DNA from: Bispira polyomma
Taxonomy: Eukaryota
NCBI GenBank assembly: GCA_965649765.1
Contig: OZ287748.1
Location: 105,090,001 to 105,154,000 of the forward strand
Direction of reading: 5' to 3'
DNA length: 64,000 bases
Of the stretch, positions 2,261 to 44,724 are shown in pieces (within the stretch, counting starts at the first letter, position 1; each line of letters starts with the position of its first letter). The position numbers and the translations under genes are program-made. The notes beneath the pieces are model-generated. The model was given only the letters and a program-made list of their open reading frames with translations, ran no database searches and was not told the origin of the DNA.

Positions 2261-3251
2261 TGTTGATTGCTGAATTGATTAACTCTGACATCGGTGCACT
2301 TTCTGCATCCCCTGTGCTATATCTCTACCAAATATGATTGTGCATATACGATAATATGATAATTAATGATTCTCAAGATTTTTCTCGGAATGTTCAATTA
2401 TAATTTTCCGGCTAAAAACAACATTGGTTATTATAGACAGACAGTTTATTGGAGTTGAAGTGTAAAATTTGACTTGCCTTAAATATAAGACTATGTTCTA
2501 TGAACAGTTCAACTTCATCTAACTGGGATTTGTGATCAGTTAATTGGACATTCTGTATCTGCACTAGTCAAGGTGGATTCTCACCTATAGCCTTAGGTTT
2601 GTGTATTGGATTGCATTTGATTTTAATCAAAAGGAAGAACGATTTGAAATAAGTACATAGCTTGTTTTAAAGCAAAACATAGTTTACCATTTTATTCATT
2701 GCCTTTTTGTGACAGACGTTTATACACACACGTGAATAAGATCAACGTAACATTATTAAAATAAATAAAATGAAAAAACAATGCTCTAAAGTTAATTACA
2801 ATCACTTGAAAAAGTTAATTCCAATGAAAGAATTATTATCACCAATTTTATCACCATAATTAAACAAGGGGAATATTGTAGTCACTGCTCGCAAGCATTG
2901 CAAGTCAGTTATTAAGTTTAAATACCTTACTGTAATGTTTACCTCCTTAAAATTGTTTACCTAGCCACACCAATCATAGTGTAGAACACTTATGGTTCAC
3001 AACCTATCAGATTCCTTATTTGTAAGTCAATTCCCGCTTTTTCTCTCTATATTGGCATTATTTAGTTGCAAGTCATTAAGGCAACACTGAAAACTTTGGC
3101 TGAAGAACCGCATATTGGATTTTAAAGAAATTTCAAATGTTTACAAGTTTCTTTTAGAGTTTTTAACAGTTTCACATATACATAGGCGTTTTTTGTGATT
3201 GTGTAACTGTGTGCTTGATATAGTCGGTCTTACGTGGATATATCTTACACT

Positions 3252-4352
3252 ATGGGTCGAGGAAAAAAGAGGCAGGTTTCATCACAGATTGCCTTATGTA
3301 GTCCCTGTAATGTATCTCACTCTAAACCCGTTGGAAACAGGTGTCGCCGTCCAACAGAGACAGAGTTCACAGAGGTAGAAACTGAGAGCAGCACATCCAA
3401 CTTCGATGACGTCCTCAGTCAGACTTCCGAGGCAGAGAATGTAAGTTCTGAACAATTTTACAAAGATATATACACTAAGCAACAGACCATGATGGAAACT
3501 TTCGTTACAATCGTGTCTAAACTTCAGGAAGATGTATCTGATTTGAAATCAACTTGTTCACCTCTCACCAATGAAATACCAGTAACTGGGGGAGCCATAC
3601 CAAAGGTCTCGGCAGCACGACCTATTCCTGCACCGCGTTCACCAGGCCTTTAGACTTCTTTCGGCAGCTTCTCCACAGGGACGTCACAGTTCCCGAGTGC
3701 GCCACATTCTCATCACACGTCTCTCCCTGGGTTTCAACATGAAGTTCCACATAACGTGTACCAACCCTGTCTTACTGAGCATTACCCTACAGTTAATCCT
3801 CAGTTACCTACACTGCCTCAGCAGGACAGCTATAACTAAGAGTTTACACAAAGGGCGATGCAGGATGCCATTCTGCCCACTCCAGATGTTCTGAGACAGT
3901 CAGCAGTAATCCAGAACGAAGTATCACAGTGTCTGGCCCGTTATGAAGCCTGGGCAGCTGACGAGTCATTACAAGGAAAGCTGATCACGAAACGAAAATC
4001 TGTTAAGTTGGTGAGATGAAACGAAGTGGATGATGAATAGGTTGTCCTATTCCCAGGCTCTTATCTCAAGTGGCATGTCCTCGGGTTCACCTTCCACTAG
4101 TCAGAATTCTGCTTCGTCGGGTGGCAAGAACGAAATGCCTTGCCGCCATTATATAAGAAAAACCAGTGTACTCATCAGAAGGACCATGAAGGAACCAATA
4201 CTATCTTCAAGCACGTCTGTGCAAACTGTTACCGTTTAAATAAGAAACTTAACCCTCACCCGGAAGCCAAGTGCTACAATGATTTACGGCCGTCCAAGTA
4301 CACCAGCAAACGCACCACAATAGGACCACAGACTGTCAACGGACACCACTAG
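3252..4352 (+). pseudogene. gag-like ORF1 of copy B (stops and frameshifts)
   Basis: N-terminal CSPCNVSHSKPVGNRC zinc-finger-like motif; C-terminal C..Y..NQC..H..HVCANC..HPEAKC finger, parallel to ORF1 at 29150-30133. Confidence 0.75.
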
Positions 4353-5479
4353 CAGTAACTTTAGCAGAAGTAATGTTTATATCAGTAGGAAATCAGATGT
4401 CGTCATTGAGGAAAATGTTTATTATGAGAACAATTGTAATTAGACTTTTATCGCGCTTAATCTCCCCTTAACTAAGGGGACTCTAAGGCGCACCAGCACA
4501 AAAGACAGTAATCCAATTTCCAAAATCAAGGGACAGAAAAGGGTCAGCACCACAGAGCGCGCTGGGGGGATGATAGAGACTAAGGTGAATATGCTTTAGT
4601 GTACAAGTGGATTTTAAGCTGCTTTCTAAAACAGGCTAGTGAAGGGGAAGCAAAAATCACATCAGGAAGAGCATTCCAAACAATGGGAGCATCAAAAGCA
4701 AAGCTGTGACCAAAGTGTTTAACTGACTAACAATAATTTAAGCTATAAGAATATTAGGCAAAATTATGTTATGGATGGTGTAGAAACAATTTTAAGTAAT
4801 AACTTGAGCTTTAGGGATGGACAATGTTTGGTTTTCGATTCTCATGATACCCCCTCCAGTGCTGAACATGTGTGTGGTTATAATGTGCCTTATACTGTAA
4901 AGAACTGTATTAATACTCCTAGTAGTATGAACTGTAGTCATGTAATGTCTCATCCTATTTTAGTGGATGTGTATCAAAGTGACAGTTACTTTAATTCATA
5001 TGTTTCAGCTTGTTATATTGTCTGTCATGATAATCTATGTTTTTCAGGAGTTTATCATTGGATCCATCTGTGTGGCCATTGGTCATTACAGAAAAGTGAT
5101 CTAAATCTAGACCAGATTTGGCCTATCTCTTGTGTGGACACAAGGTCACTACCTGTTATTATATCCAATACATCACCATACAATAAGAAACCATCACATA
5201 CCACAAAACCACGGATACAGAGAACCACACATACACACACAAACATTGGCAGTGCTTTTTACTATACTGACATAATTGACAAATTTCAAAAAATAACAGT
5301 AAATAATCACAATGTCAACAAATAGAGCTTTCAGCTGACAAATACCTAGATAAATCACTCTGACAGTCTCACTAAGAGACTGTACACACTACTTGTAAGG
5401 AGGACGTTGTATTAGACAACACAGTAATACAGGACACAGTCATATCAAGAGGACATGAGGGCATAGTGACTTCTAATAG

Positions 5480-7233
5480 TAGGACTTATGGTTTCATACC
5501 TCATACTAAAGACACTTTTTAGTTTACAGGCCCTGATAGGCAACAGGTTGACATAGACTCTTATGAAACTTTGATTCAGTGGCAAATGTCATCAGAAACT
5601 ACAAAAGTTTCTCATTATAGGCAGGCCCGTATTCCTCTGAGAAGTAACCTTAACGTACATAAGTGGAAAGAATACCTCAAAGGTTATCCTTACCCAATTA
5701 TACTACAATATGTAGAGTTTGGATATCCCATATCCCTTTATGACAGAGATAGATTGAAAGTAACAAAAATTAAGAACCATTTTTCAGCAAAAGCTTTCCC
5801 AGATGCCATTGACAAATATTTTGTCAAAGAATTAGCTAAGGGTAGCATAGTTGGTCCCATTTGTGGTGATATTCATCCATTTGTGGTGATATTCATTCAT
5901 TGTTCACCCTTGTTAACTGTCCCTAAAGATACTGACCAACGTCGACTAGTACTCAATTTTTCCCACCCCTCTGGATATTCTGTAAATGACTGTACTGTTA
6001 AGAATAAATATCATGACATTGACTTTAGTTTGAGGTTACCAACCATAGATCAGATAACCTCACGTATACTTGAAATAGGCATTAAGGCAACCTTAGCAAT
6101 GGTGGACATGGCCCATGCTTTTAGGAATTTAAGGATGGACCCTTAAGAGACTGTCTTAAGTTAGGTTTTTTTGGAAAAATGACTATTACTTAGATTTATC
6201 TCTAACTTTTGGCCTCACCCATGGCACGGCGGTCTTTATGATGACCTCATATTGTATAACATATATTATGAAGCAGAAAGGTTTTACTGTCTACAACTAT
6301 ATAGACGAATTTATCCTTTTAGAAACTGAAGATAAGGCTGACTTAGCTTATACTACTCTACAAGGAATTTTGACTGATTTAGGTCTACCCATAAATGACA
6401 AAAAACTGGTTTCACCACGAAAATGTGTTACTTGCATGGGCATTACCATTGATATAACTCGGGAAACCCTCAGTATTGACCAAGATGAATTAAATTCCAT
6501 ATTTATCACTTGCTTTAAATTTGAATACTTGACCAAAGTACATAAACAGAAGTACCAGTCATTATTGAGAAAACTTTTATACATTCAACGATGTATAAAA
6601 CATTCTGGGATATTTATGAACAGGATGTTGACTTTATTAAGACAATCTACCAGTAGTAAGACAGTGACCTTGACTAGCGAATTTCACAAAGATTTACAGT
6701 GGTTTTTGCGTTTTCTTAAAAAGTTTAATGGAACCACAAAATATACTTATGTGAATAATGAACATGACTCTTTGCTACAAGTTAACGCTTGCTTATCTGG
6801 CATTGGAGGCATTTCGGATAATTACGTCTTTAAGAGTCCTTTACCTCATTTTCTCACCATAAATTTGTCTATAGTGCACTTTGAGATGGTGAGCATTCTT
6901 ATCGCACTTAAATTATGGGGTCAAAAGTGGGTAATTAAGAAAATTAAGATACAATCCGACAACATGGCTGTGGTTTCCGTTGTACAGTCATCAAAGACAA
7001 GGGATGACTACTTAGGACTATGCCTTAGGAACATATGGCACATCTGTGCTCTCAACAACATTGACTTAATTATTAGACACATATACCTGGTAAAGAAAAC
7101 GTTATAGCTGATGCTCTCTCCAGATGGTTTGAACTGATTGTATGATGGAAATCACATTCGACAAGAAATCACAAATAACTTCAACATGTATGACATTCCT
7201 ACTGACTTTTTTACTCTGGACTCTTATATTTAA
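5480..7233 (+). pseudogene. RT/RNase H of copy B
   Basis: HCSPLLTVPK..RRLVLNFSHP..SVND, VDMAHAFRNL, NYIDEF (decayed YIDD), IVHFEM..DNMAVV, ADALSRW; ends FFTLDSYI-TAA at 7231-7233. Confidence 0.9.
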
Positions 7234-7243
7234 TTAATTTCAG

Positions 7244-8316
7244 ACTCCTCAGATCCAGCTTCATCTCTGATCAGAGGAGCCATAGACAGAATAGGACACA
7301 GCCAGAAACCTAGAGCCAGAAAGCAATATGACAGTCAGCTGAGACTATTCTTAAATTTCAAAATTTACTATGACCTCAAACAAACATTTACCTTCAACAG
7401 CATTATTGCCTTCTTGGAATTTCTGACTCAGTCAGGAGTTTCTCACAAATTTATATGTAACTACCTATCAGCTTTAAGATACCATACAAAGGTATTAAAC
7501 ATTCAACATACAGGGTTATACGACCCCAGATTACCACTTTACCTCAAATCCTTAGAGCTTAATTCCAAGTACACTCCAAAGGTCAAAGGGGTTTTTGACT
7601 TGCTCAACTGTTACAGTTTTCACAAGCTTGTGACCAACTTCAATTCCCTGAATTATACAAAACTGCTTTTCTCTTTGCTTTTTTTGATTTTTAAGAATAT
7701 CTAACTAAACCACCACCTCAGGTGTCCCTTTTGACCCCACCAGACACCTGACAAGGTCAGACATACTTTTTGCACCTCCAGGAATTCACCTCATTTGAAA
7801 GTGGTCAAAAACCAATCAGCTCAGAGCTAATCCTGACATTATTCAGTTACCTGAACTTTCTAACCCATGGTTATGCCCAGTTAGGGCTGTTAGAAATCTG
7901 CTGAACAGATACCCTTTAGGACGCATGGATCCTCTTTTAGCAAACCCCTTAGACAAAGGAAACTGTCTTTCAGACTCAAAGTTGGGACTTACTTTAAAAA
8001 ACATACTTATCCAACTGAATATACCCACAGAAGGTCACTCCTTCCATTCAGACGCTCTGGAGCATCCTTAGCATTTAACTCCAATGTTAAACTTCAACAC
8101 ATACAGAAGCATGGTTGTATACCTACAGAAGGTTACTCCTTCCATTCAGACGCTCTGGAGCATCCTTAGCATCTAACTCCAATGTTAAACTTCAACACAT
8201 ACAGAAGCATGGTTGTTGGAAGTCAGATGCTGTTTGGTCTTACCTTCAATCTGCCTCCCACGCCTCTTCAATTATTCCAATCTACTTTCGCCTCTCTTGT
8301 CTCTTCTACTTTCTAA
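7244..8316 (+). pseudogene. Tyrosine recombinase of copy B
   Basis: NYLSALR, decayed FLRISN, KWSKT, LCPV, FHS(F)RRSGA, HGCWKSDAVWSY catalytic motifs; several frameshifts. Confidence 0.9.
8021..8216 (+). repeat. 98-bp tandem duplication inside the YR
   Basis: ATACCCACAGAAGG...ATGGTTGT at 8021-8118 is repeated at 8119-8216. Confidence 0.95.
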
Positions 8317-8454
8317 TTTGGCTTTGGCATTTTAAAATTTTATATTTAAAATTTTATTGTACAGTTGTAAATAAGAGACAAGTAGATAGAAAATAAATAT
8401 CCCAAACTGCATCTGACTTCTTCACTCATATATACTTATTTATAAATTCCTGGG

Positions 8455-8857
8455 GAATTTAGCCGTATATAAATTGCTAAATTGCCTGAGCGATTTGTAA
8501 GTTGCCCGGGCGGTTTTTAAATTGCCCGGCAATTTAGCAGTATATAATTGCTACATTGTCCAGGTGATTTACACAAATTGCTAAATTGCCCAGGCGGTTT
8601 ATAAATTGCCCGGGTAATTTACAAATTGACCAGGCAATTTAGCAGTATATAAATTGTTTGTACGTCCTAAACAATTTGTAAATTGCCCATGCAGTTTACA
8701 AATTTCCGGGGCAGTTTAGAAATATATAAATTGTTTAATTGCCTTGGTGATTTATAAATTGCCCGGCGGGTTTATAAATTGCCTGGGTAAAAAACTTTGT
8801 GTTTACAAATAAATATAATCATTGTTTTCCTGCCATGTCCTAACTGGGCTTCCATAT
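8455..8857. repeat. Tandem array of palindromic AAATTGCCCGGGCAATTT-type units, probably the inside of a non-autonomous element
   Basis: About 15 degenerate AAATTGCC(C/T)GG cores at 8455-8790, followed by a short tail ending GGGCTTCCATA. Confidence 0.7.
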
Positions 8858-24102: not shown

Positions 24103-26060
24103 TATTGTATTGTATTGTATTGTACATTTTTAACGCGCCTTATTAATGCAAGGCATCTTCAAAGGTGCAACATCAGAATCAATCAGCCAATAGAAAAATG
24201 AAAAAAAACATAGCCAGGTCGTAAGGATGGATGCGTCAGTGCCCAGGAGAAGGACTACGACAGATAGGAGAGCCTGAACAGATAGGTTTTAAGCCTTTTC
24301 TAAAACCAGAAAGTGTATCGAGCAGTATGAGTTCAACTAGAAGACTATTCCATTACATCAGGGCGGCGACCGAGAAGGCTCTAAATCCAACCCTCTTGGT
24401 AGGTTTTTTAGAGGAAACAGAGTCTTTTTCCCCTTTTAAGGCTGCTGAAGGAGAGCTTAGTAGCAAGGTAGTGAGACTGTTGAGAGACAACAGCTTTAAA
24501 AATGGTTATGTGCATTTTAAACGGGATTCAATAGTAAATAGGAAGCCAGTGAACTTTCTTAAGGTATGGAGTGACACCAGTACGGATTCCCAAACGAAAG
24601 ATGACTCTACATATAAAGTTTTGAATGGACTGCAACTTGTTTATGTGGGACTTATTGGCTCCATACAGAAGAGAATTACAGTAGTCAAGGCGGCTACTTA
24701 CAAGAGCATTGGCCACAGTAATAGCAGTATCAAGTGACAGATAATTTCTGATTCTTCTGAGGTCCTGAGTGTGATAGTAACAGAAGCGGGAGATGTTGTT
24801 AATTTGAGGAAGAAATGAAAAAGCAGGGTCGATAGTGACACCTAGGTGTTTGACATGGTCTAAAGGTTGAATCTCATTGCCCAGCAGTGTGATTGGGAAA
24901 AGTGATCTTAAGTATTCGCTGTGTTTCTTATTTCCAATTAGGATGAATTCAGTTTTGTCAGGGTTTAGTTTCAGTTTGGAGTAGTTCATACACGCCTGAA
25001 CTGAGGAGAGACAGTCGGCAAGTAAATCCAGGTTGTATCCAGCATTATGAGTGTTGAGGGAGAGACAGATTTGAGTGTCATCAGCATACATGTGATGTTT
25101 AACATTGTGATTATTGATGACTGCACTGAGAGGTTGGGTGTAGAGGGTAAACAGTAAAGGGCTGAGAACAGGGGTACTCCAAATGGTAGGTTGAAAGAGG
25201 ATGAAAAGTGGTCGCCCAATTTGATTTTTTGGGTTCTAAGAGCAAGGTCCGATTTGATCCAATCAAGGCCAGTACCATTAAGGCAAAACCCACTGTTTTA
25301 GGGTGTCAAATAGTAAGCCATGGTCGATGGTATCAAAAGCTTCGGAGAGATCGAGGAGGGTGAGGGCTACAGTTTCATCACGATCCAAGGCAAGGTTAAT
25401 GTCATCACTGATTGAAAGGAGGGCACTCTCCGTGGAGTGAAATTTTCTGTAGGCAGATTGGTGGCAGTTAGCTAGATTTTGTTTATTAAGGTGCTTATGA
25501 ATTTCTTTAGCAACAGCTTTCTCAATAAGTTTCGATACAAAGCTGAGGTTAGAGACTGGTCTATAGTTTTTTAGCCCATTTTTGTCAAGGCCAGTTTTTT
25601 TCAGCAAGGGGGCGACATATGCAGTTTTGAAACAAGAGGGAAATATACCATATCTGATCGAAAAATTTATAATGTAGGTGATAGGAGTTATGAGAATGTC
25701 TAGACATTCTATGAGAACAGCGGCAGGGATAGGATCTAGTTCAAAGGATTTGATGGAGTTGGATTTTATGAGTTTGAGAACATGGTTCTTGGAAAGTGGG
25801 TTAAAATGTAGCAGATTTGAGACTTTTTAGCCAGGCGATGGTGGAAAGATTGTTGAAAAATTTTTCTGCAAGAAATGTCAGGCAATGATTATCAGGCAAA
25901 ACTTTTTCAGTTGTGTGGTGGAGAATTTTATTTATGGAGCTCCATAACCTTTTTGGTGAGTTTGAATTTTCATTATTGATCGAATCATAGTGCTCTTTTT
26001 GGCTCTGGTCATTAGTGCATTAAAGTGGTTTGTGGCGGTTCTGTAGCGCTTGCCAAGTTG
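24103..26060 (-). mobile_element. 5'-truncated L2/Crack-type (CR1 group) LINE
   Basis: KNYRPVSNLSFVSKLIEK, LDLSEAFDTIDH, YADDTQ, KLNPDKTE, ALVSSRLDYCNSLL, HWLPI; (CAATA)n tail at 24103-24123. Confidence 0.92.
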
Positions 26061-28640: not shown

Positions 28641-28846
28641 TGCGGGGTAGACCCGCAGGGGATAGCTAGTTCAGTGCTACCAGAATTTTCCTTAACTTAC
28701 CTCCCTGGGGTCATAACCTTTAACCTCCCTTATAATTCGCCAGTTTGTACCTAGTGACCCCAGCTTTCCCGCCTTTTTTGCAGATCTATCACTTTTTACA
28801 TTGAAGTCAATCCGGCAACAACGCCATCTTAAATATTTTACTTTTT
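28641..28846 (+). repeat. Split direct repeat A1 (A2 at 34313-34518)
   Basis: About 206 bp near-identical copies starting with the hairpin TGCGGG-GTAGA-CCCGCA. Confidence 0.95.
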
Positions 28847-29149
28847 AATTTTAAGCTGTGATATTTTTATACGATTTCTTTTATTTTGTGTGTGGTGAAA
28901 TGGAAGGATACTTTAACTGACTCACCTCACTGTTGTGCATAATAACCAAGGATTCACGGACTGCTTGTTGCTGTGTTTAAGTTTTAACTCACACTCTTGA
29001 GTCGTGCGAATATACTGCTCGTGGAGCGCTTTTAAAGGAACGTATCAAATCATTCTAATCACAAGTTTTACCATTTGAATCAAATTGCAGTTATTCCTAG
29101 CATATACGCAGGTATCAAGACACCGAGTTACTATATTTGTTTAGAGGCT

Positions 29150-30133
29150 ATGGCCCCAAGAAAACTGTATGAGTGCCAGAAATGTGGTACTAGTCATGTC
29201 AAACCAATAAATGAAGACTGTTCTCGCATTGCCGAGGAGGAGACTGAGGATGCTGATACTGATACTGAAACGCAGAACTCTATTCAGTGACGGTGTGGCT
29301 TCTGCCGATATTAATGTGGAAATTTTAAAAGAACTGAGAGCCCTTAGTGGACGCATAACGTTAGTCGAGCAGAAAGTCGATCACGGCGAACATAGAGTCC
29401 AGTTTTCGAGGGCAACCTCAAGTCTGGAGGTTCCTGTCCAGACGCCCCAGACGCAGTTAGATGAACTACTGGTACCTACACTCCAGACTCTAAGAACTTC
29501 CCAGTCCCTCCAGACAGCAGTGGACTCCAGATTGAAGGAACTCGTCGCAATAAATGAGTCAGGTACATGTAAATCCCAGCGTTGGGGAACAGAAACAGTA
29601 TGGGTCAAAAACAAAATTTCTTGGCCACAAAGCTACATCCTGGGGGGACAAAACAAATCATGTGTTTCCTATGACTCTCTCTTAATGGCGCAATGGGTGG
29701 CTGGTTTTGCCAGCATAGCCAGGGAAAAAACAAACATTGATACTAAAAACCATATGCTTGAATACCTGGCACATCTAATGGAAGACTCACATGACTTTTC
29801 TTGGGCTGCTACTAAGGGCAGCCATGCTGTTTTGTTATGCAAAATGGAGGAGGGAAAAGTGTCTTGGGGGGACTCCCATAAGTTACATCGCATTCGAAGG
29901 GCCCATGCCCAAAAAGTTATCACTCAAAATTACAATAATAGTAGCAATCCCAAGAAAAGTCATGACAAAGCCGTTTCATGCAGGTATTACCAGAAAGGCA
30001 CTTGCCCCCAGAAAGGGGAACATGAAACAAGGGGGGTCACATATAGCCATGTATATAGTGAATGTTTTAAGACAGGCGCTCCTACCCACATCCCAGCAAG
30101 GACTGCCGAAAGAATCCCACAAAAAACGAGTGA
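29150..30133 (+). pseudogene. gag-like ORF1 of copy A (two frameshifts)
   Basis: MAPRKLYECQKCGTSHVKPINEDC start; WPQSYI, QWVAGF, SHAVLLCKMEEG core; CRYYQKGTC..H..SH..SEC finger, completed by YPHPSKDC..KNE-TGA after a 1-nt shift near 30076. Confidence 0.85.
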
Positions 30134-30155
30134 GGCACTGCAGTAATGCAGTGCC
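30121..30155 (+). promoter_or_regulatory. -1 programmed ribosomal frameshift signal (gag to pol)
   Basis: A AAA AAC slippery heptamer at 30121-30127, 6-nt spacer, perfect 9-bp stem GGCACTGCA-GTAA-TGCAGTGCC; the -1 frame is the long ORF 29791-30912. Confidence 0.8.
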
Positions 30156-32499
30156 AACTCGCAGATCTTCTAAAGCACAACTAAGTGGTAATAAGGGTGT
30201 AAATAATGTACAGGGTTTTGATTCTAGAATTGTATATAACAGTAGTCATGTTCTGCATGGCAGTGCTTGCTGGAGGATGGATTGGGCTAAATGTCAAAAC
30301 AAGTCATATGCTGATGTACTTAAAAGCTTGTGTCTCTCCAGTTGTGCTATCAAGAATAAAAATCCATGTAATGTCAAAGTTGTAAAAATGTACAGTGATA
30401 GTCAGTTGCCCCAGGTGGGGTCATATGTGTATAAAAACAAAGTTTCAGGTATTGCATGTCATGACCTCCGTGCAAGGTTGCACACAAAAGCCAACAGCTG
30501 TGTCAACAAACCTAGATTTAAAAACCCTAGCCTCATGGACAAACCACTAGTGTCACCAAAACCTAAAAACAACACTCGCTATGTCAACAACCCACAATGG
30601 GTTCTTCCCACTTCTAAAAAATTCACACCTCTAGAGGACAATGGTCCAACTGTTAGTAGCTGGGCCAGTGATATCACTGACAAAACTCAATGTACTGACA
30701 CACACGTAGTCTCACAAAGTATCCAAGCTAAAAGTAGTGTAAATAGTCAGAGACAGGTAAACGCAGACAAATATGACTTGGAATTACAAGTGAAATCCAA
30801 GAGTAGGGATCTCATTAAGCAAGCACGTGAGGTACCTCAGTTCCAGCAGTGGGACGCCCAGAACACAGATAAGTATGGTTTCATTTCGTTAAGCAAACTT
30901 CGTCTTCCTTAAACAGATAAGCGAATTCGTTCAGAGGAAACATTGTTGAAATTATATAGTGTGATCAAAGACCATACTTAGTGGATTATTGGGACAAGCA
31001 GTTACCACTGTTAATACGCTATGGTTTTCCGCTTGATTTCCAATGTGACAGTAAACTCTCCCACAAGGAGCAAAATCATCAATCCGCAGTTCAGTATCCG
31101 GATGACGTCAAGGCGTACTTGGCCGAAGAAACACAACTAGGTGCTATGCTATGCCCTTTTGAACATATTCCAATTGACAACCTTCACATTTTTTATGACT
31201 AGGGAGAAACCTGAGGGGCTCATAGACGAGTCATAATCGACTTGAGTTTTCCTCACGGGGAGTCAGTAAACTCAGCAGTGGCCAAAGACAAATATTTAGA
31301 CACCTCTTTTGCTCTCACTCTTCCCACTATTGATACCATTACCAATAAAATCTCACGCCTAGGTTGTGGTACCTTACTATATAAAATTGACGTCAGTCGA
31401 GCGTTCCATCACGTAAAGATGGACCCGCCTGACTACAACCTGTTAGGACTTAAACTTGAGCACTATTATGTAGATTCCTGCCTGCCGTTCGGTTTTCGGC
31501 ACGGAAGTGCCATATTTCAATGCCTCAGCGATGCCGTTAGATATATTATGAAAAATCACGGCCATGACATCACAAATTACATCGACGACGTAATCAGGTA
31601 CGGTGATGTCATAGAAAGTGAGTGTTCATTCAAAATTTTGTATAACCTTCTACACGAGTTTGGCTTTGCCCTGAGTGAGAAAAAAACTTGTACAGCCTAG
31701 CACAGCAGTTATTTGCCTCGGGGTGTTAGTTGATACAGTTGAGTTAACAGTCTCTTTACCTGAGGAAAAACTTACCAAAAGTAATGTTCTAGTTAAAGAA
31801 TGGCATCACAAAAATACCTGCACAAAGCGAGAACTCCAATCCTTTCTAGGCAAACTGCTATACATTTCCAAATGTGTGAGGGTTTCCTGGGTATTTCTCA
31901 ATCACATGCTTGACGTGCTGAGGTCTGCAGGGGCAAATCAAAAAGTTGAGCTTATCCCCGAGTTCCACCAGGATGTAAACTGGTTTAAGCAATTTTTACC
32001 TAAATTCAATGGTAAGGCCTTCTTTGAACATGATCCAAACACCGATTGCATACAATTGGATGCCTGCTTACAAGGGATGGGGGGTCGTTGCAACAACGAC
32101 ATGTATGAATTTCAGATTCCCTTGGGTTACCTTAATATGACAATAGTACATTTAGAAATGCTTAACATTTTGGTGGCCATCAGACTCTGGAAATCAACCT
32201 GGCGGGGCAAACGTTTAATACTGCAATGTGATAATGCAGCAGTGGTCACCATTTTAAATTCAGGAAAGACCAAAGACTTGACCCTGGCAGCAATTGCCCG
32301 TAATATTTTTATGAAAGTGGCCTCGGTTGATATTAGTCTCAAAACTATGCACATTTTGGGCAGACTGAATACAGTGGCTGACCTCTTGTCGAGATGGCAC
32401 CTTACAGTAGATAGTGACAAAAAATTATCAGAAATACTACCTAATTCAAAGTAGGCAAAAATTAAGCCACACATGCTAGAAATAGACTGGTCTATTTAA
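30121..32499 (+). pseudogene. pol (long N-terminal extension, RT, RNase H) of copy A
   Basis: YGFPLDF, DLSFPHGESVN, KIDVSRAF, CLPFGFRHGS, NYIDD, LDACLQGMGG, IVHLEMLN, CDN, ADLLSRW; ends EIDWSI-TAA at 32497-32499. Confidence 0.93.
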
Positions 32500-32506
32500 T
32501 TTACAG

Positions 32507-33495
32507 ATGTACCCTCTCAGTTAAGAAAGATAACCACTCAAGTTGCAAACAGAACTCACCAGGCTTTCAGACCAGCCACTGAGAGGGCTTATACAAACAT
32601 GTTTAGGATTTTCCTAGCCTTCTGCAGTTTTGCTCAGGTCAGACCTCAGCTTATTACCCCCTCAATTATTCTTTCATTTCTAGAAGTTCTAGCAGTCAAC
32701 CAAGTTTTCACTCCTTCCATAGCAAATTATCTCTCTGCAGTTAAAGCCAAAATGGCCTTATATGGCCTTGATGTCACTTTTTTTAGATCCCAAAATTAAG
32801 TACTACCAGAAGGCCTTAGTCCTTAATAGCCCCTTCAGGGCAAAAATTAAAACAGTCATTGATATACCACTTCTTCAGCAAATGATTCAAATATGTGACA
32901 GCATGTACATGGGACTAAATTTTAAAGCCCTGTATCTCATAGCTTTTTTCTCATTTCTCAGAATATCAAACCTAGTACCCCATTCTGCTGCACAGTTCTC
33001 CCCTCTAGTTCAGCTGGCCAGGGGGACGTGCTATTTGCTCCTCCTGGCCTTCACATTACCATTAAATGGTCTAAAACCCTTCAGTCAAAAAATGTTATCA
33101 AAGTATTAAAAATTCCTACCCTGAATGGGTCCCCTTTGTGTCCGGTGGCAGCCACTAGGATCTTACTAGCAGTTACACCGGGGCATAAAAACTCCCCTCT
33201 CTTTCAAATCAAAAAAAATCAGAAATAGTATCCCATGATTGATACCCAGGTCAGAAAAAACCTTACCTCAATACTCCCCCAATTGGGTCTCCAACAATCT
33301 GCTATATCCTTCCACACCTTCCGTCGTTCAGGTGTCACCCTGGCTTTTAATAGTAATGTACCAATTCAAGACATACAGAGTCATGGCACCTGGACGTCGG
33401 ACTGTGTGTGGAAGTATATCGTTCAGGACCACAATGCCTCTGAGCAGGTGGCCCTCTCCTTCAAGGCCCTACTTTCTAAACCCACTACCTCCTAA
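32507..33495 (+). pseudogene. Tyrosine recombinase of copy A
   Basis: AFRPAT..AY, NYLSAVK, AFFSFLRISNL, KWSKT, LCPV, FHTFRRSG, HGTWTSDCVWKY (catalytic R-H-R-Y). Confidence 0.93.
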
Positions 33496-33499
33496 TTGG

Positions 33500-34287
33500 G
33501 CTTTAGGGCTTTATATACATACTTTTACATTATTAATATATACTTAAATGTTAAATATAAATATTTTGGGCCACCTTAACACCTTATTTAATCTTAAATC
33601 TTTTATATACAGTTATTATATTTCCTTTGGCAACCTTAAAGAAAACCTAAGGTTACCTCATAATTAAAATTCAAATCTAACCCCAACTTTATGTTAGGGC
33701 TAACCTTAAATTCATTAACTTAAACTCAATTTTAGGTAACCCTAACTTCAAGCTAGGATTACCCTAAACTCAAAATTCTTCTTCACCTTAACCTGGAAAC
33801 TTTCAGGCTAAGGTCACCTTAACTCAAATTTTAAAAACCTTCCTCGTGCTTAGGTGGCCCTAAACTCAGTGTGTAAATAAATATTAGATATAACATAGAA
33901 GCATTATAAAGAAGTGCGCATACAACACAAAAGCCGTCAGTGCGCAATTCGTAACCGTACTTTATCTGGGAGAATAGATCACGGATAAATAGTTCCGTCA
34001 GTAGCTACAAAAATAGTTCACAGTAAGTTGGAAATTATCTTAGTATTTGCTCAAAAATATACTGTTGCCAGTTTTATAATAGAAATAAAGTACACGGGCT
34101 TGTACTTTATTGGCGAATCAAGGACAGCCTTTCGGCATAATGGACGAGGGCCGGTAGGCCCTTGTCCATTATTCCGCCGTAAGTCAGTCCTTGATTCACC
34201 AATAAAGTACTGGCCCTTAAACTTTATTTCTACATTAAGCTAATATCCCGAACTCTGCCTTTTTTACTTACCTGTGTTACATCATAG
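33500..34287 (+). repeat. Split direct repeat B1 (B2 at about 35925-36301), interrupted by an insertion
   Basis: CATACTTTTACATTATT...CTTACCTGTGTTACATCATAG present twice; B2 has small deletions. Confidence 0.93.
33907..34237. mobile_element. Insertion of about 330 bp in B1 ending in a hairpin of about 155 nt
   Basis: Absent from B2; CATTA on both sides; palindrome at about 34080-34232 centred on GGGCC-GGTA-GGCCC. Confidence 0.8.
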
Positions 34288-35417
34288 TTCAACTTCTCTT
34301 GGTAGGGCACTGTGCGGGGTAGACCCGCAGGGGATAGCTAGTTCAGTGCTACCAGTATTTTCCTTAATTTACCTCCCTGGAGTCATAACCTTTAAACTCT
34401 CTTATAATTCGCCAGTTTGTACCTAGTGACCCCAGCTTTCCCGCCTTTTCTGCAGATTTATCACTTTTTACATTGAAGTCAAACCGGCAACAACGCCATC
34501 TTAAATATTTTACTTTTTCCCACCCTCTTCCCCTACTACTTCCTCTGCAGTTTTTAGCTATTCGTACATCCGTTAAAGCGCTTGCTGCTGTCCCTGGAGT
34601 CCCTTAAGTCTCCCTTTACACCTTGGCACAGGGGTGGGGGCTGGAAGTTATGGGCCCTGAGTTATGCATTACTGCTGGCTTTCATGGTTCCTGGCCCTTG
34701 GGCGTTTTCTGGGACCCCAGGTGACCTGTCTCCCTTCTAATCTGGGTAACACCAGGGCCCCTATGGGGCCACACTTTCTTTTAGGTAGCTGATTGCTGCT
34801 GAGATTGCGACCCCTCAGTTTTCAACAATTGTACTTTACTTTATTTTTAGGGTAAAATCCCCTTATGTGTGTATTACATTAAATGTACTTTAATAATGTT
34901 GTTTTCTTGTCACGTAAGGGCGTGACGTGTTATAGTAATAGTATGTGAATTTTTGTATGTGGATAGCAGGCATTTGGAGGCTTGACGCGCTATCACCAGA
35001 TGTTGGTGTGTTTAAATAGTACAAGTATAAAGTAATATAAATCAACTTTGTGATTTCATGTATAATGTGTGTAATGCGCAACCTTAGTGTTGTAGCTAGT
35101 GTAGTGTCAAGTATATATTATAGATATCATGCAATTGCATGTCATGTAACCATAAACAAGTGTTTAACGTTGAATATGTAGTTTCAGGAGCATGGGACAC
35201 ATGATTCAGCCGTCGTGGTCAAGCAACTCTCTTCTCTGCACAGCACGGACTCACTCCTGAAAAGCAACAGCAACTCGATTTGCATTTTATGTCTGTATGC
35301 ATGTTTTCCTCAGATCATGGTTATTGTATGTGCTAGGGGTGTAAGGTGTAATTTGTTAGCGACTCTTGGACTTTATTGTGAATGCTTTTAGTATTTTAGC
35401 TAGTCACCATGGTCTTA

Positions 35418-35901
35418 TGCCCTGGTCCCACCGGATATACGTTAGGTTAGGTTAGTCACGCAAGGGCTGAGTAAATATTTGCTGCAAAAGTTGATGCAAA
35501 ACCCAAATATATTGCTTTTGTTCACGTGAAAGGCGTCAACAGATGTTAAAATTCATGTATTAGTACATCAAAAGCTGTCAAGTCTCGCATGGGATGCATA
35601 AGTTCACATCAAAGTACGTATTTCAATCCCTGTATGACATGTATGAGTACGCAAATACACGTAAAATGACGTCATAATGACGCACATGTACACACTGTGA
35701 CGCATATCCACGTTTTAGTACGTCATACTTTTGCATCTCTTGCCTGTCCAAATTTCAAACAGTTTGAAATCATAAATTTCTTGTGTGTCATCTCTCACGT
35801 CAGGTTATGTATGTTTATGTATATTACGTCAGCTCCCACAAATCCTACGCAAATTGATTTTTGTAACGACTGGTTGTGTGATGGCCGGTGGGACCAGGGT
35901 A
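35418..35901. mobile_element. MITE with 15-bp perfect TIRs
   Basis: CCCTGGTCCCACCGG (35420-35434) and CCGGTGGGACCAGGG (35885-35899). Confidence 0.75.
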
Positions 35902-37149
35902 TTAAATTCAATTTTACCCTTTTTTGGGACTTTATTTACATACTTTTACATTATTATTATATACTTAAATGTTAAATATAAATAGTTTGGGCCACCCTAA
36001 CACCTTATTTAATCTTAAATCTTTTATATACAGTTAATATATTTCCTTTGGCAACCTTAAAGAAAACCTAAGGTTACCTCATAATCAAAATTCAAATCTA
36101 ACCCTAACTTTATGTTAGGGCTAACCTAAAATTCATTAACTTAAGCTAGGGTTACCCTAAACTCAAAGGTCACCTGAACTCTCAAATTTTAAAAACTTTC
36201 CTCGTGCTAAGGTGGCCCTAAAAAAATATTAGATATAACATAGAAGCATTAAACTAATATCCCCAACTCTGCTTTTTTTACTTACCTGTGTTACATCATA
36301 GGTATTTCTGAAAACCTCCGACATATGCATTGGATCTGAACTGTAGAATTACAAGTATTGTCCTCTATTTAAACCTTAATAGACAAGACATAATTAAATT
36401 CCGTGTTTGGTAAAACAAATGTTTATCTTTCAACATTGCAAATTCCTTTACGCTCTATGTGGCTACAAATAAATCATAATTAAAATATAGGAACTTGGTT
36501 AAGGTTCAAATTACCCGGTTTCACCTGCAGAAAGTTCAAATAGATAATTTTGTGTTATAATAAATTAGTTACATTCTATACTATATCTATGTATATATGT
36601 GTGATTCTTATAAAAGAACGATGATCTTGCTGTGAACAATATATTACATGTAAATATATTTAATGTCATTTTATAATTTTCAAGTTAGAGACTATGAAAT
36701 CTATGTTTTTGATATCTTATTAACAGTCATATCAATATTGTATCCAATTGATCACTTCACTACTATTTCAAGCATGCCTAGAGGTTACAACCCACGGGTC
36801 TTAATGAGTAGTTGGTTTTTGAACTATCGAATAAATTTAATAATAAAATTTGGTTTACTAGGAAGGTATAGGTACGAGGTGCATCATGCATCAGATGAAA
36901 TTGGGAATTGACCACTTTATGATTTGCAACTTAAAGTTGAATTAGATAATTAGATAACACCATAATGCCCACAATACTATGGTATCTGAGTGCATCATGA
37001 TGTTAAGTAATTAAAATAGAACTATCACTACATGTGTTATTAGACTATCAGGTTGAACTTTAAATTGTAATTTACAAATTCTCCCAAAGGCCATTCTCAG
37101 TGATTACTTTATAAGTGGAACTATGATTACTGGAAAAGTTATGGCTACG

Positions 37150-39720: not shown

Positions 39721-42700
39721 TAGATTTACTACCCAATGGCTGGAGGGTGTTATACTAGTCAGGTGGAAAGGTCTTATAATAGCACAGATTTTGGTGCTCG
39801 TGTTGTTACTATAGGTTTTTGTCCAGGTTACCAGTACACGGTCAGACCGACACGCCCCCCCCCCTTTTGTTTTCTCTCTCCACTGTGGGAGGAGTAGGAG
39901 ACGACCATAATCAACACATGCCTAACCACAGGGAGAAAGCCTGATCGGAATTGACTGATTGAGGAGAAAAAAAACTTATAGTGAATAGACAAAAATAAAA
40001 GGCAGCCTAATTACTGAGGGCTAACTTTTTAATTGGTTATAAGGGGAGAGACTAATTACATTGGTCAACTCCTTTCCTTCTTAATTAATAAGAGCAGTGC
40101 CTAATTGTATATTTGGTACTCTTATAATAGAGAATTACTGGAACTGGGGATTAATTACTTCATCCATTGTTCCACTTAATCAACTAATAATTCCCTTGAA
40201 TACGGTAAAGAAAATTTACAACCAATCTAGGGGTCGATTTGCTGGGCAGCTACCACCAGAAGTAGATGGAAACGCTCCTTGTCCTCCCACACAATGTCCT
40301 GCAAGTAGAACTGTGTGAAGGTATTGAGTGATTTTCAATGACAGGCAGAGGGGATTTGTTCTAGAGACATTCGACTTCGGAAGGCTTTGGAGGCAACAAA
40401 GGCTCTAACATCATGGGCTTTAACTTGATGCAAGTTGCATGACACTTCATAGATTGTAACACATAACCATGGTTTTCTTAATCCAGGATGAAATGGTAGC
40501 AGCAAAAATATCCTTCTAAAAACTCTTTTTGAAAGAGACGAAGACTAATTTCTTATCTGTTCTTATATCACTTGTTGTGTCCAAGTAATAACGTAAAGGC
40601 TCTGATCGTGCATAGGGAACGATCCTCTGGGTGAAATCTGTCTACGGACAGGGCTAGGGCCGGTATCTCCACAGGGGCTACACTACCCGGTCCGTCGTGG
40701 CCAGAAAGGAAGGGGAAGAATACACGGAAACTTTTGACCAATCCTGCTCGTGTCTAATGTTCTCATTTACCCAAGCATGTATTTTACTTCTCCGTTTTCC
40801 CGAAGCTAAAGCCATAAGAAAAAAGTGTTTTTTTTTAAGATTAGCCTTCCCTAAAGGTATAAAGGGGGCTTTCGGGAGTTGCTAGAGAAAGGAGAGGTTT
40901 CAAGCTGGAACTCCCGGTCTGTCTTTGGGTTTATCCCTATGGAAACTATCCAGTAGTCCGTTGAGGTTCTCTTCCTTACTGATATTGATCACAAACCGCT
41001 TTTAGCTCTAGGAAAGTTTACGTGCAGTTTCTTTTCCGGGACAGTCCATACGCCTTTTGCAGTCTGCCCATCTATGTATGCGCCCCAGCCTTCGTTTGAG
41101 GAGTCTGTAAAAATCTGCACAGCACAACGAATGGGGTGGAGAGGTTGACCCGGAAAAAAGTTTTTGGGGTCTAACCACCAACTTAGGTGGGTGTGGAGTG
41201 CTAGGGGGATACTCTTCTCCAATGACTCTGGTAACCGCCAGTTGCTTTTGAGGTGCCACTGGAGAGGTCTCATGTGGAGCCTGCCTGATGGCACTAACTT
41301 CTCTATTGATGTTAGGCCTATCAGTGACATGAATTGCCGGACTGAGCAATGGCCTTGGGAAATCAATCTTGTCAGTTACTGCTTTCCCTCTTTCTTGTGT
41401 CGGGCGAACTCGGCCCGATTGGAGGTCGTATTGATAACCCACAAAGTCAAAGACCTGATTGGTTATCAATTCCGACTTCTCCATGTTTAGCAACCAACCT
41501 AGTGTTTGTACTAAAGAGACCAGTTTCTAAGTTTGTTGGTAACAGATTTTCCTGAATGGGGCTCTGATTAACCAGTTGTCTAGGTACTAGTGTAATCGGA
41601 TTTCTGACCTTTGTGCCACGACCTTGACCAGGAAGGTAAACTCTAGGGGGGCAGTGGATAGGCGGAAGGGTAGGGCCTTGAATTGGTAAGTGATTCTGTT
41701 CAAAGAGAATCTTGTGTATTTCCGTGACCTTTTGTTTATGGTGATGTGGAAATACGCATCGCTAAAGTCGATTGAGGTTACCTATTCGTTTGTTTAAAGT
41801 GACAGTCTGATTGATTCTGGGGTTTCCATTTTTACCTTTTTGACCTTGAGATAGAGGTTTAAGGTACGGAGATCTAGAATGGGGCGCCACTTTCCATTTG
41901 GTTTGGGGACCAGGAGGAGGTTGTAAAAACCCAGAGAGCTTAGAGTGGAGACTTTCTCCACAGCTTGTTTGTCTACTATGTTTTGAATGCTTTCTCTTAG
42001 AGCTGCATTTCTCGGAGGATTTTAGTACCCCCTTGTTATCGAGGGAGATCTTGTAAGCGGGGCTTCTTTTGAGAAGAAAGTTAGTACCCGCTTGTATTAA
42101 AGATACAGCACGGGGAATGGCTTCTAGTGACCTTCATTGTTCCCAGTAGGACTGGAAGTGACCTTTCACAGGGGGGTGATTGGCAACATTTCTGACATTT
42201 GAGACAATTGGGGCAAGGCTTAAGTAAGGAGCAAAAGAAAAAACTTTTTAATTGGTCTTTTGTTACAGAAGGTACATGAAAGGCAACAATGTCTCAGAAT
42301 ACATTTGTCTTGGGAGACAGCCGGTGAACACCGGGAACATCTTTTACAATATGTAGAGGTTCTTTTCTACAATATTTACACAATCCATACCATGAAAATT
42401 GTCTGCAATACAAGCACCATTTAAGCTGTTGAGGCCGGGAACCTGTTTTGTAGGGGTGATACTGTGATTGAGAACCACAACATCCCCAGTAGGTGCTCCC
42501 ACGACCGTTTCCACGTCCACGCGGGGCTGAATGGTATGATCCCCATGACGGGGTAGTATCCGGAGCCTGACTAGTAGAGGTAGCCTGCGTAATGGATTGG
42601 TTGGTCATTTGGTACGGGCTGTACCGGCAACTTTAATTCTGGGAGCCAGACTTACTCTGGACCTGAGCGGCAGTAGCTCAGTCTGGCAGATTTCCTCTTC

Positions 42701-44724
42701 CACCGACCGGATGGTAGTGTCTTCGAAAAGACCAGGGATATCAAAGGGCCCATTTTTCAATTTATTTAAGGTATCCGTGCAGATGCCACTCTTGAACAGT
42801 GGTAAATATGTGTCTCTCCTCATTAAAATAACATTGGCAGTGGGAGAGAACATAATGTAGGCCTCGTCTTGGACCAACTTTCCAAAAATGTAGCTCACAT
42901 TCTTGCAGAACTCTTGTCTCTTTAAATGTTCATCAATGTAGGCCGACGACAAGCCCATATAACCCCGGTAGGGTCTCGGCTTGTGAACTGGATTCCTTAA
43001 TCCTAGCTCCAGCGACATACCAGTTCTCATTAAGGTTAGTAGCACACTTGGTGTTGGCCGCACTGTGGTTACAAATTAAGGTTCCTTCCCTGAGGGAACG
43101 TTCCATCTTCCTAATGCCTTCCTGTGGAAGGCGTCTGAGGGGTGGAGCAGTGGAGGACAGCTTGTGCTTGAAAATTCTCTGGCACAAGGAATTGAGAACA
43201 GCTAGAGATGAGGACCACGTCCTGGCAGCCGGGAGGTGGTCGAGTAGGAAAAATTTAGTGACATTTTCCTTTGTGAGTGTATTTGGCGGGTACCATCTCA
43301 GCTGTGATTTCGGGGTCTGATAAACTGATCAGGGTGCAGGGTACCACCCTCTGCCCCTTTGGTGGTGTACCTGTGTGTGGCAACACAATAAAAGTCATTC
43401 CATTTCCTGAGAAGCCACGGGTCGGCAGGAAGTTCAGCTGAAACTTTTCCTACCTGTTGTGATCTAAGACCCTGAAAGGGATTTTCTGTATTTGCAGGGA
43501 GGTGCTCAACATCAGTGATGTGGGTCCATCCCATAAAGTGTCTGATAGACCTCATTAGCATTCTTTCGACACAGTGGTGAGTTCCGGTGATACGTTATTA
43601 GCCTCAGAGGCTAGGTCCTCGTCTTGACCTGGTTGTTGAAATCCAAAAATTTCCCCTTCTTCTTGAGTAGAAAGTTCTATTTCCACTTTTAGGTCAGTGC
43701 CGCTAGATATAACTATAGGGGGGTCTTGAGAGACACAGTAGCTGACACCAAGGCACTTGAGGGTACATATCCGGCAGGAAAGTGGGTATGACCACATTAA
43801 CACTGTCCGCAAAAACTGGGTTGGGTTTTGCTACCAGAGGTCTGGGTACAGTACGAGTAGTCGGAGGGGAGCGCATCTGACCTTTGAAAGACCTTTCTAA
43901 TTAATACAGGCTAACGCTAGTAGCGGTAGTCGCCTGTGTAGTCAGTGGTTTAAAAACCTGTTGTTGAACTGGTGGTTAAACTGGTTTTGGTTGAGTCAAC
44001 ATGAGAATATTCTCCGAAAGCGGTAGGAAGGTCGGTACCATCTTTTGCTCCATGGTGGTCATTCTTTCAGACCACCCTGCAAAGAGAGATTTAATCTCTG
44101 TCATAAGGATAACTGGAGAGATCTGGGGTTCATCAAAACCTGGAGGAGGTCTAACTTCCCTCTTAAATGGAGGAGTGCTGGGAGCCAAATACGAGAGTTC
44201 TTTGAACCCCAGAGGGTGAGACATACAAGTATCTAGTCTAGCGGGAGACTCGCCAGTAGATCCAACAGAGGTGCCAAGAACTGCTTCTAAATCCTTTTCA
44301 ATAATGATTTGTCCTTCAGCAAAAGCTGAACCCACTAAGAGTAAATCCGACTCTGTTTTCTTGACTTTCCCAATTTTGTAGGCAGGTTTAGATATCAGTT
44401 GACGCTGAGATGGGGTGAATTTAAGGCACACCTTTTGTGTTTGGTGTGGACCGGCATATGCCTACGTATACTAGTGTAATAAAATTTACTGTCTAACCTA
44501 CTCTCCAGCTGTTGATTGTTCTTTTCTAGATGGTCCAACTTAGCCATGATCATCTCTAGTGGGTTAGCAATCAAAGTCGACGTAGTGGCGCATACTGTGG
44601 AGGATTCTGGAGCATGTTGCTGATATTCTGTGGTAATCTCGGAAGTTGTTCTGTTCATCAAGCACTTGTTCCCTCGGGCCATGTGTGCCGTAGATTCTTC
44701 TCTTTCAAGTTGCATGTGTGACAA
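39340..44724 (-). mobile_element. DIRS1-type YR retrotransposon, 5' ITR missing, internally deleted
   Basis: gag-like fragments 42605-44724; RT (GKWRPILDL, SIDFSDAYFHI, YLDNWLI); RNH (IFTDSSNEGWGA); YR (ALASGKRRS, HDVRA, CHWKSLNTFTQFY); right ITR and ICR at 39340-39720. Confidence 0.9.

Follow-up and report, generated by a model that had tools for sequence, protein, structure and literature searches.

Genomic evidence for a probable spliced RNA joining gag to the tyrosine recombinase frame in Ngaro-type retrotransposons of Bispira polyomma

Background

Spliced subgenomic RNAs are familiar from retroviral env, from foamy-virus pol and from the gag RNAs of Drosophila copia and plant Ty1/copia elements. 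Here we describe two decayed retroelements in a stretch of 64,000 nucleotides (nt) from Bispira polyomma (the window; assembly GCA_965649765.1, contig OZ287748.1, positions 105,090,001 to 105,154,000, forward strand), element A at about 28641-36301 and element B at 2876-8435, each with frames for gag, for reverse transcriptase (RT) with RNase H (pol) and, as the third, for a tyrosine recombinase (YR). Judging by genomic sequence, these Ngaro-type elements very probably express YR from an RNA in which the 5' part of gag is spliced to the YR frame.

In the portions covered of PMC4157794, PMC3266345 and PMC6681497, Ngaro elements are defined by split direct repeats and the lack of a methyltransferase domain; PAT and DIRS1-like elements have such a domain, and in the latter the terminal repeats are inverted and an internal complementary region is present. 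In all groups of fungal Ngaro elements YR is described as either in frame or frameshifted relative to RT-RNase H (PMC3783388), and in the covered part of that article neither "splic" nor "intron" occurs. According to Poulter and Butler (2015), in the passage quoted in PMC13003380, YR is probably translated by programmed frameshift, and on this guess the translation of the often ATG-less YR open reading frame (ORF) has so far rested. A gag-YR splice was not found in the covered portions of PMC9210276, PMC8547959, PMC12477816, PMC7192593, PMC9341512, PMC4495291 and PMC3212892, nor did a full-text literature search return any report of one, with an earlier mention possible in supplements, in Repbase or in the two key subscription papers. 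We regard the feature as real and well supported, in a known element family whose proposed expression route we did not come across in print.

As in retroviruses and long terminal repeat (LTR) elements with subgenomic RNAs, there would be one transcription unit, whose unspliced RNA is both genome and Gag-Pol message and whose spliced RNA codes for another protein; the difference is that the product here would be the integration enzyme itself, carrying a long in-frame piece of Gag. With Ngaro-like elements (order DIRS) our copies share the order gag, RT/RNase H, YR, the repeat arrangement A1...B1 A2 B2 and the lack of a methyltransferase domain, whereas the published guess is a ribosomal frameshift and the evidence here points to an intron whose excision would take out pol and link the N-terminus of Gag to YR. 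DIRS-order sequence is also used via alternative splicing in the LAP2alpha exons of TMPO and ZNF451 (as far as described in the covered part of PMC4495291), but there the host has co-opted a gag exon, which is not the element's own route to a recombinase.

Conserved predicted splice sites

Since gag is frameshifted or stopped before the donor in both window copies, neither can itself make a fusion, and the test was therefore moved to relatives in the 1.04-Gb assembly, which our own-genome searches covered. A first set of 79 loci came from a DNA search with the pol/YR junction of element A (39 of 40 matches fetched, the window itself and a split match being set aside) and a protein search with the YR start of element B (40 of 150 matches fetched, picked for long open frames and spread), and 60 more were fetched with peptides that end just before the donor or start just after the acceptor. 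The acceptor set has 141 loci, 135 of them placed, one intron-less and five unplaced (L046, L048, L130, L131 and L145; L130 and L131, when refetched, have the CAG), and the donor set has 81 (the 79 and the two window elements), 61 of which held the gag donor region. The copies divide deeply into an A-like and a B-like clade (support 100/100), which together comprise some 15 subfamilies, and copies with all three ORFs intact occur in one (L023, L035) as in the other (L054, L055, L071).

Of the 135 placed copies, 129 have a phase-1 CAG at a distance of 20 codons upstream of the F/H-R-P motif, and 130 have the AG; of the six without this CAG, three carry a point change and three a deletion or rearrangement. 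Loci recovered with acceptor-free queries have it as well (56 of 57). Among the 131 copies tallied, T occupies positions -6 and -5 in 128 and 130, and C, A and G occupy -3 to -1 in 127, 128 and 129, while position -4 is unconstrained (A 42, T 44, G 44, C 1). Nearly fixed flanks around a free -4 are the shape of a spliceosomal 3' site. TTnCAG is frequent by itself, at seven to eight occurrences per 5.5-kb element, and it is thus position and phase, not the motif, that constitute the evidence.

At the donor, GT is found in 29 of 30 clade-A copies (CAG/GTACGT, the slash marking the exon-intron boundary; GTACAT in element A), in CAG/GTACGT form in all eight further clade-A gag copies, and in 29 of 31 clade-B copies (CAAG/GTAAGC). 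Element B is one of the two clade-B exceptions, and its GAAAG, which a reading of the window from its letters only (hereafter the sequence-only reading) had taken to be one change away from GTAAG, is indeed a private change, GTAAG standing in 29 of the 31 clade-B donor regions. The same reading had placed both donors at a G-x-x-K-S position; this holds in clade A, but clade B has K-S seven residues after the donor Gly, so that the distance from the donor Gly to K-S differs between the clades.

As a control for protein constraint we used a codon alignment with one natural copy per family (nine clade-A and six clade-B families). Across the clade-A families the third base is invariant in only two of 39 fourfold columns, one of which is the donor GGT, and this is also the sole invariant column among 11 Gly columns. 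The next codon is ACG in eight of the nine families, and the residue after that varies between C, S and F, yet its codon always starts with T. The six clade-B families share CAA, (G/A)GT, AAG and CTN at the donor. The predicted intron thus has the GT donor, YAG acceptor consensus, conservation and matching phase of a spliceosomal GT-AG intron, and intact copies keep both sites in phase and show, ahead of the N-terminal helix, no conserved ATG for YR, as the sequence-only reading had anticipated. Given their fixed position, the constraint at synonymous sites and the intron-less copy described below, these putative signals exceed chance.

An intron-less genomic copy

One genomic copy, L076/L080 (G000:C1:95308297-95310504), begins with the first base of repeat A, passes from the gag 5' part directly into YR and stops at the last base of repeat B, without a poly(A) tail. 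Compared with its reference L150, a full copy that is 97-98% identical, it lacks 3323 nt, from GT to AG: its join reads ...ATTCAAG/ACACTTCC, where L150 has ...ATTCAAG/GTAAGC and ...TTTCAG/ACACTTCC (with longer flanks, AGTATTCAAG/ACACTTCC against AGTATTCAAG/GTAAGC and ATAATTTCAG/ACACTTCC). Gag and YR are in frame over the join, and the gag part has one stop. Among 31 internal deletions of at least 60 nt (copy versus family reference), a GT..AG is readable in this one only. The simplest reading is reverse transcription of a spliced RNA, and the splice from the gag 5' part to YR that had been proposed from the window gains support from a copy with the predicted junction to the base. That this copy ends at B without A2 is not special, because the unspliced L083 ends likewise. 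Contigs of three genomic-DNA-like public runs, searched on L023 and L150, gave no donor-acceptor joint among the joints listed; such contigs show presence only, and hence say nothing for or against the junction.

The two copies in the window

The sites that the sequence-only reading had named in elements A and B are where it put them. In element A the donor TAAATGAGTCAG/GTACAT lies at 29562/29563, the pol TAA at 32497-32499 and the acceptor TTTACAG/AT at 32506/32507; in element B, CAAG/GAAAG lies at 3975/3976, the TAA at 7231-7233 and the acceptor TTAATTTCAG/AC at 7243/7244. The four sites are phase 1, both acceptors with respect to the YR frame. All features are on the plus strand.

28641..28846, plus: element A, split direct repeat A1, 96% to A2 at 34313-34518
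29150..29562, plus: element A, predicted coding exon 1 (5' part of gag), which holds two helical stretches and a CxxCxxxHxKPxxxxC finger; this copy is frameshifted
29563..29568, plus: element A, donor site of the predicted splice, GTACAT (GTACGT in the family; 24 of 30 clade-A copies have G at +5)
29563..32506, plus: element A, predicted intron of 2944 nt, gag remainder and whole pol (RT, RNase H)
30121..30155, plus: element A, gag/pol junction, slippery heptamer AAAAAAC with a 9-bp hairpin behind it, probably the site of a -1 frameshift
32497..32506, plus: element A, pol TAA and acceptor TTTACAG
32507..33495, plus: element A, YR, predicted exon 2; frameshifts and stops in this copy
33502..34312, plus: element A, repeat B1 region; B2, at about 35923-36301, is a deleted copy
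34313..34518, plus: element A, split direct repeat A2
2876..3097, plus: element B, repeat A1; the element is truncated at about 8435, within B1
3252..3975, plus: element B, 5' part of gag as predicted exon 1; stops in this copy
3976..3981, plus: element B, donor mutated to GAAAGC; family form GTAAGC
7231..7243, plus: element B, pol TAA and acceptor TTAATTTCAG; spacing 10 nt, 6 nt in most clade-B copies
7244..8320, plus: element B, YR, predicted exon 2; broken, end approximate

Within the predicted intron of element A, Pfam RVT_3 matches the window piece and RVT_1 an intact copy; the YR of element A matches PF13495 with an E-value of 5.8e-05, under the curated cut-off.

Proposed expression route

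We propose that the full-length RNA would serve as genome and template and would yield Gag and Gag-Pol, the latter by -1 frameshift in clade A and by UAG readthrough in clade B, and that a splice would join the first 134 to about 245 gag codons, in phase 1, to the acceptor shortly after the pol stop, so that the whole of pol and the remainder of gag are taken out. The spliced RNA would encode a Gag-N-terminus/YR fusion of about 460 amino acids in clade A and 520-570 in clade B, with the CxxCxxxHxxPxxxxC motif and two helical Gag stretches ahead of the whole YR. As it would keep both terminal repeats, it may rarely be copied back into the genome, which would account for the intron-less copy. 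We infer that the elements are spliced in this way in vivo, that the fusion acts as the functional recombinase and that its Gag piece, a zinc-finger-like motif with helices, brings YR into the particle.

The two gag/pol junctions are likely to work by different recoding, to judge from their sequence. A motif search matched 27 clade-A gag ends, all 27 with AAAAAAC, and the hairpin behind it has 9 bp (GGCACTGCA; folded in two copies). In most clade-B copies gag and pol are in frame over CAA TAG (for example L054:2204-2209, and about 4329-4334 in the window). L141 and L143 have a compensatory pair change in the clade-A hairpin. Related elements of one genome would show two modes of gag/pol recoding.

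A gag-YR splice would explain the variable YR frame relative to pol among Ngaro elements; splicing would set the ratio of Gag, Pol and YR, and the host could regulate there. The conserved intron would also define the protein to be used in biochemical work on these recombinases.

Alternative explanations

Several observations, including those on the -1 frame and on the ends of the intron-less join below, weigh against the splice. It is known here from genomic DNA, intron removal being seen in a DNA copy, and that copy is single: one of 150 scored protein matches and one of 40 DNA matches span the join. In clade A no intron-less copy was found among 150 YR matches, of which 88 are paired with a gag match at a distance of at least 1840 nt; of the 62 unpaired ones, 52 were fetched and all have pol upstream, and ten are earlier loci. 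No Gag-YR fusion protein emerged at E <= 0.001 among 50 candidates when the junction region of L076 was the query, and none of the 32 proteins found with an exon-1 profile had a YR match, the database proteins in question appearing to have been called without splicing. In clade B the donor codon could not be counted among the invariant columns, since L044, the copy chosen, has AGT. Finally, copies within a family are related, so that the counts given here are not independent, the independent units being some 15 subfamilies in two clades.

The distance from the pol stop to the exon start, readable in 118 of the 135 placed copies, is 5 nt in one copy, 6 in 77, 7 in 18, 8 in 16, 9 in four and 10 in two, which puts YR in frame with pol in 20 copies, in the -1 frame in 81 and in the +1 frame in 17. 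What has been guessed in print for Ngaro (Poulter and Butler 2015, as quoted in PMC13003380) is that ribosomes undergo a programmed -1 frameshift where pol ends and so make a Gag-Pol-YR polyprotein, and the 81 copies with YR in the -1 frame and a short overlap would suit this guess; some of these have a T run in an overlap of 25-37 nt, where a non-canonical slip could coexist with splicing. A canonical X XXY YYZ heptamer, however, lies in the overlap of only three of the 81, compared with 27 of 27 at gag/pol, and the overlap shrinks to 7-10 nt in three clade-B families. The other 37 copies have YR in other frames, in the metagenomic loci L148 and L149 the gap between pol and YR is about 770 nt with stops, and a frameshift would leave both the donor constraint and the intron-less copy unexplained. 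We consider a frameshift very improbable.

Much the same must be said of a YR made from an internal promoter or from an internal or non-AUG start, with the intron-less copy as a chance deletion at a 2-nt microhomology. As noted from the window, YR has no in-frame ATG before its N-terminal helix: the first Met of element A comes at codon 31 after the split one, and element B has no Met in 152 open codons. In 13 of 15 copies checked the first in-frame Met falls at codon 31-228, the exceptions being L004 (codon 7) and element B (none). Codon 31, the first in-frame Met of clade A, might serve as a start, but it sits within the Pfam SAM-like match (residues 16-79), and the first Mets of clade B come at 53-228. 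As to the deletion, both ends of the L076/L080 join share two nt (AG), so that a deletion at the DNA level is formally possible; it would need to strike each of the two conserved sites, 3.3 kb apart, exactly to the base, and none of the 30 other deletions runs GT..AG. In many clade-A copies exon 2 opens with an ATG; reinitiation there was also considered and rejected, as that frame is not the YR frame and ends within a few codons, and clade B lacks the ATG.

Readthrough of the pol stop, left open by the sequence-only reading on account of the YR frame lying in phase with pol behind a single TAA in both window copies, is the least probable of all and is refuted as a general mechanism, since the spacing gives all three frames (20 of 118 copies in frame, 98 out of frame) and differs between subfamilies and even between close relatives (L141 9 nt, L142 7 nt), the 10-nt spacing of element B being common to one examined member of its family while five have 6 nt.

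Assignment to the Ngaro type

In the intact copies L023 and L054, three ORFs on one strand code for gag, RT/RNase H and YR, and there is no DDE integrase: RVT_1 scores above its cut-off in both, and a Pfam scan of the two gave no integrase family match. The YR of L023 matches Phage_integrase (E-value 5e-05) and Phage_int_SAM_4 (4e-04), both under the curated cut-offs, and that of L054 has no Pfam match. Split direct repeats A1...B1 A2 B2, with the inner repeats downstream of YR, were found in L081, L084, L085, L150 and element A, whereas element B and L083 end early at B1. Pfam detected no methyltransferase behind RNase H, and pol ends about 35 residues after ADLLSRW; the elements thus have neither the methyltransferase domain of DIRS1-like and PAT-like elements nor the inverted terminal repeats of the DIRS1-like ones, their own terminal repeats being direct. 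We therefore class elements A, B and their relatives, on sequence features, as probable Ngaro-type retrotransposons, a label that rests on structure, because a PAT element without a methyltransferase is also described (in the covered part of PMC4157794).

In the same repeats, L083, L080 and element B all end at or within B1, without A2-B2, and L082 has a tandem B-A-spacer duplication.

Related elements in other organisms

A metagenome scan yielded three loci (L147-L149) from 48 candidate stretches, at 38-40% identity, L148 and L149 being near-identical and hence counted as one family. All three have a T-rich tract and a phase-1 YAG at the YR start (TAG/AT, TAG/GT and CAG/GT), and their contigs end short of the gag donors. 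In L148 and L149 the distance from the pol stop to the YR start is about 770 nt, and frameshift and readthrough are thereby excluded there. In L147, at 1720-1991, a second gag start with a CxxCxxxHxxPxxxxC finger lies behind YR, which suggests tandem elements in the organism concerned.

Database proteins give an indirect indication. Among 120 YR homologues listed, 33 reach far enough upstream, and in 30 of these the residue at the acceptor position is coded by GNN (27 Gly), preceded by T, S, L, A and V among others; gag homologues, compared by eye, mostly have G-K, G-N, G-M or G-T behind the equivalent helix. Structural conservation could explain the Gly at these positions.

Whether the splice from the Gag N-terminus to YR is a general route of YR expression in Ngaro-like elements across eukaryotes we judge to be an even bet. 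If it is, the enzyme would be a Gag-YR fusion, annotated Ngaro YR ORFs would be without their real N-terminus, and the zinc-finger-like and helical part of Gag would deliver YR to the particle and to the complementary DNA.

Other sequences in the window

Within the B1 region of element A there is a 62-nt inverted repeat (82%) at 34080-34232. The YR of element B has a 98-nt tandem duplication (8020-8215), and directly behind this element lies a palindromic array with a 20-nt period (8444-8800). On the minus strand, decayed reverse transcriptase fragments resembling those of long interspersed nuclear elements (LINEs) are found at 24531-25826, and fragments of another retroelement with RT/RNase H at 40990-44460, whose FTDSS..GWGA we take to have a DIRS1-like look.

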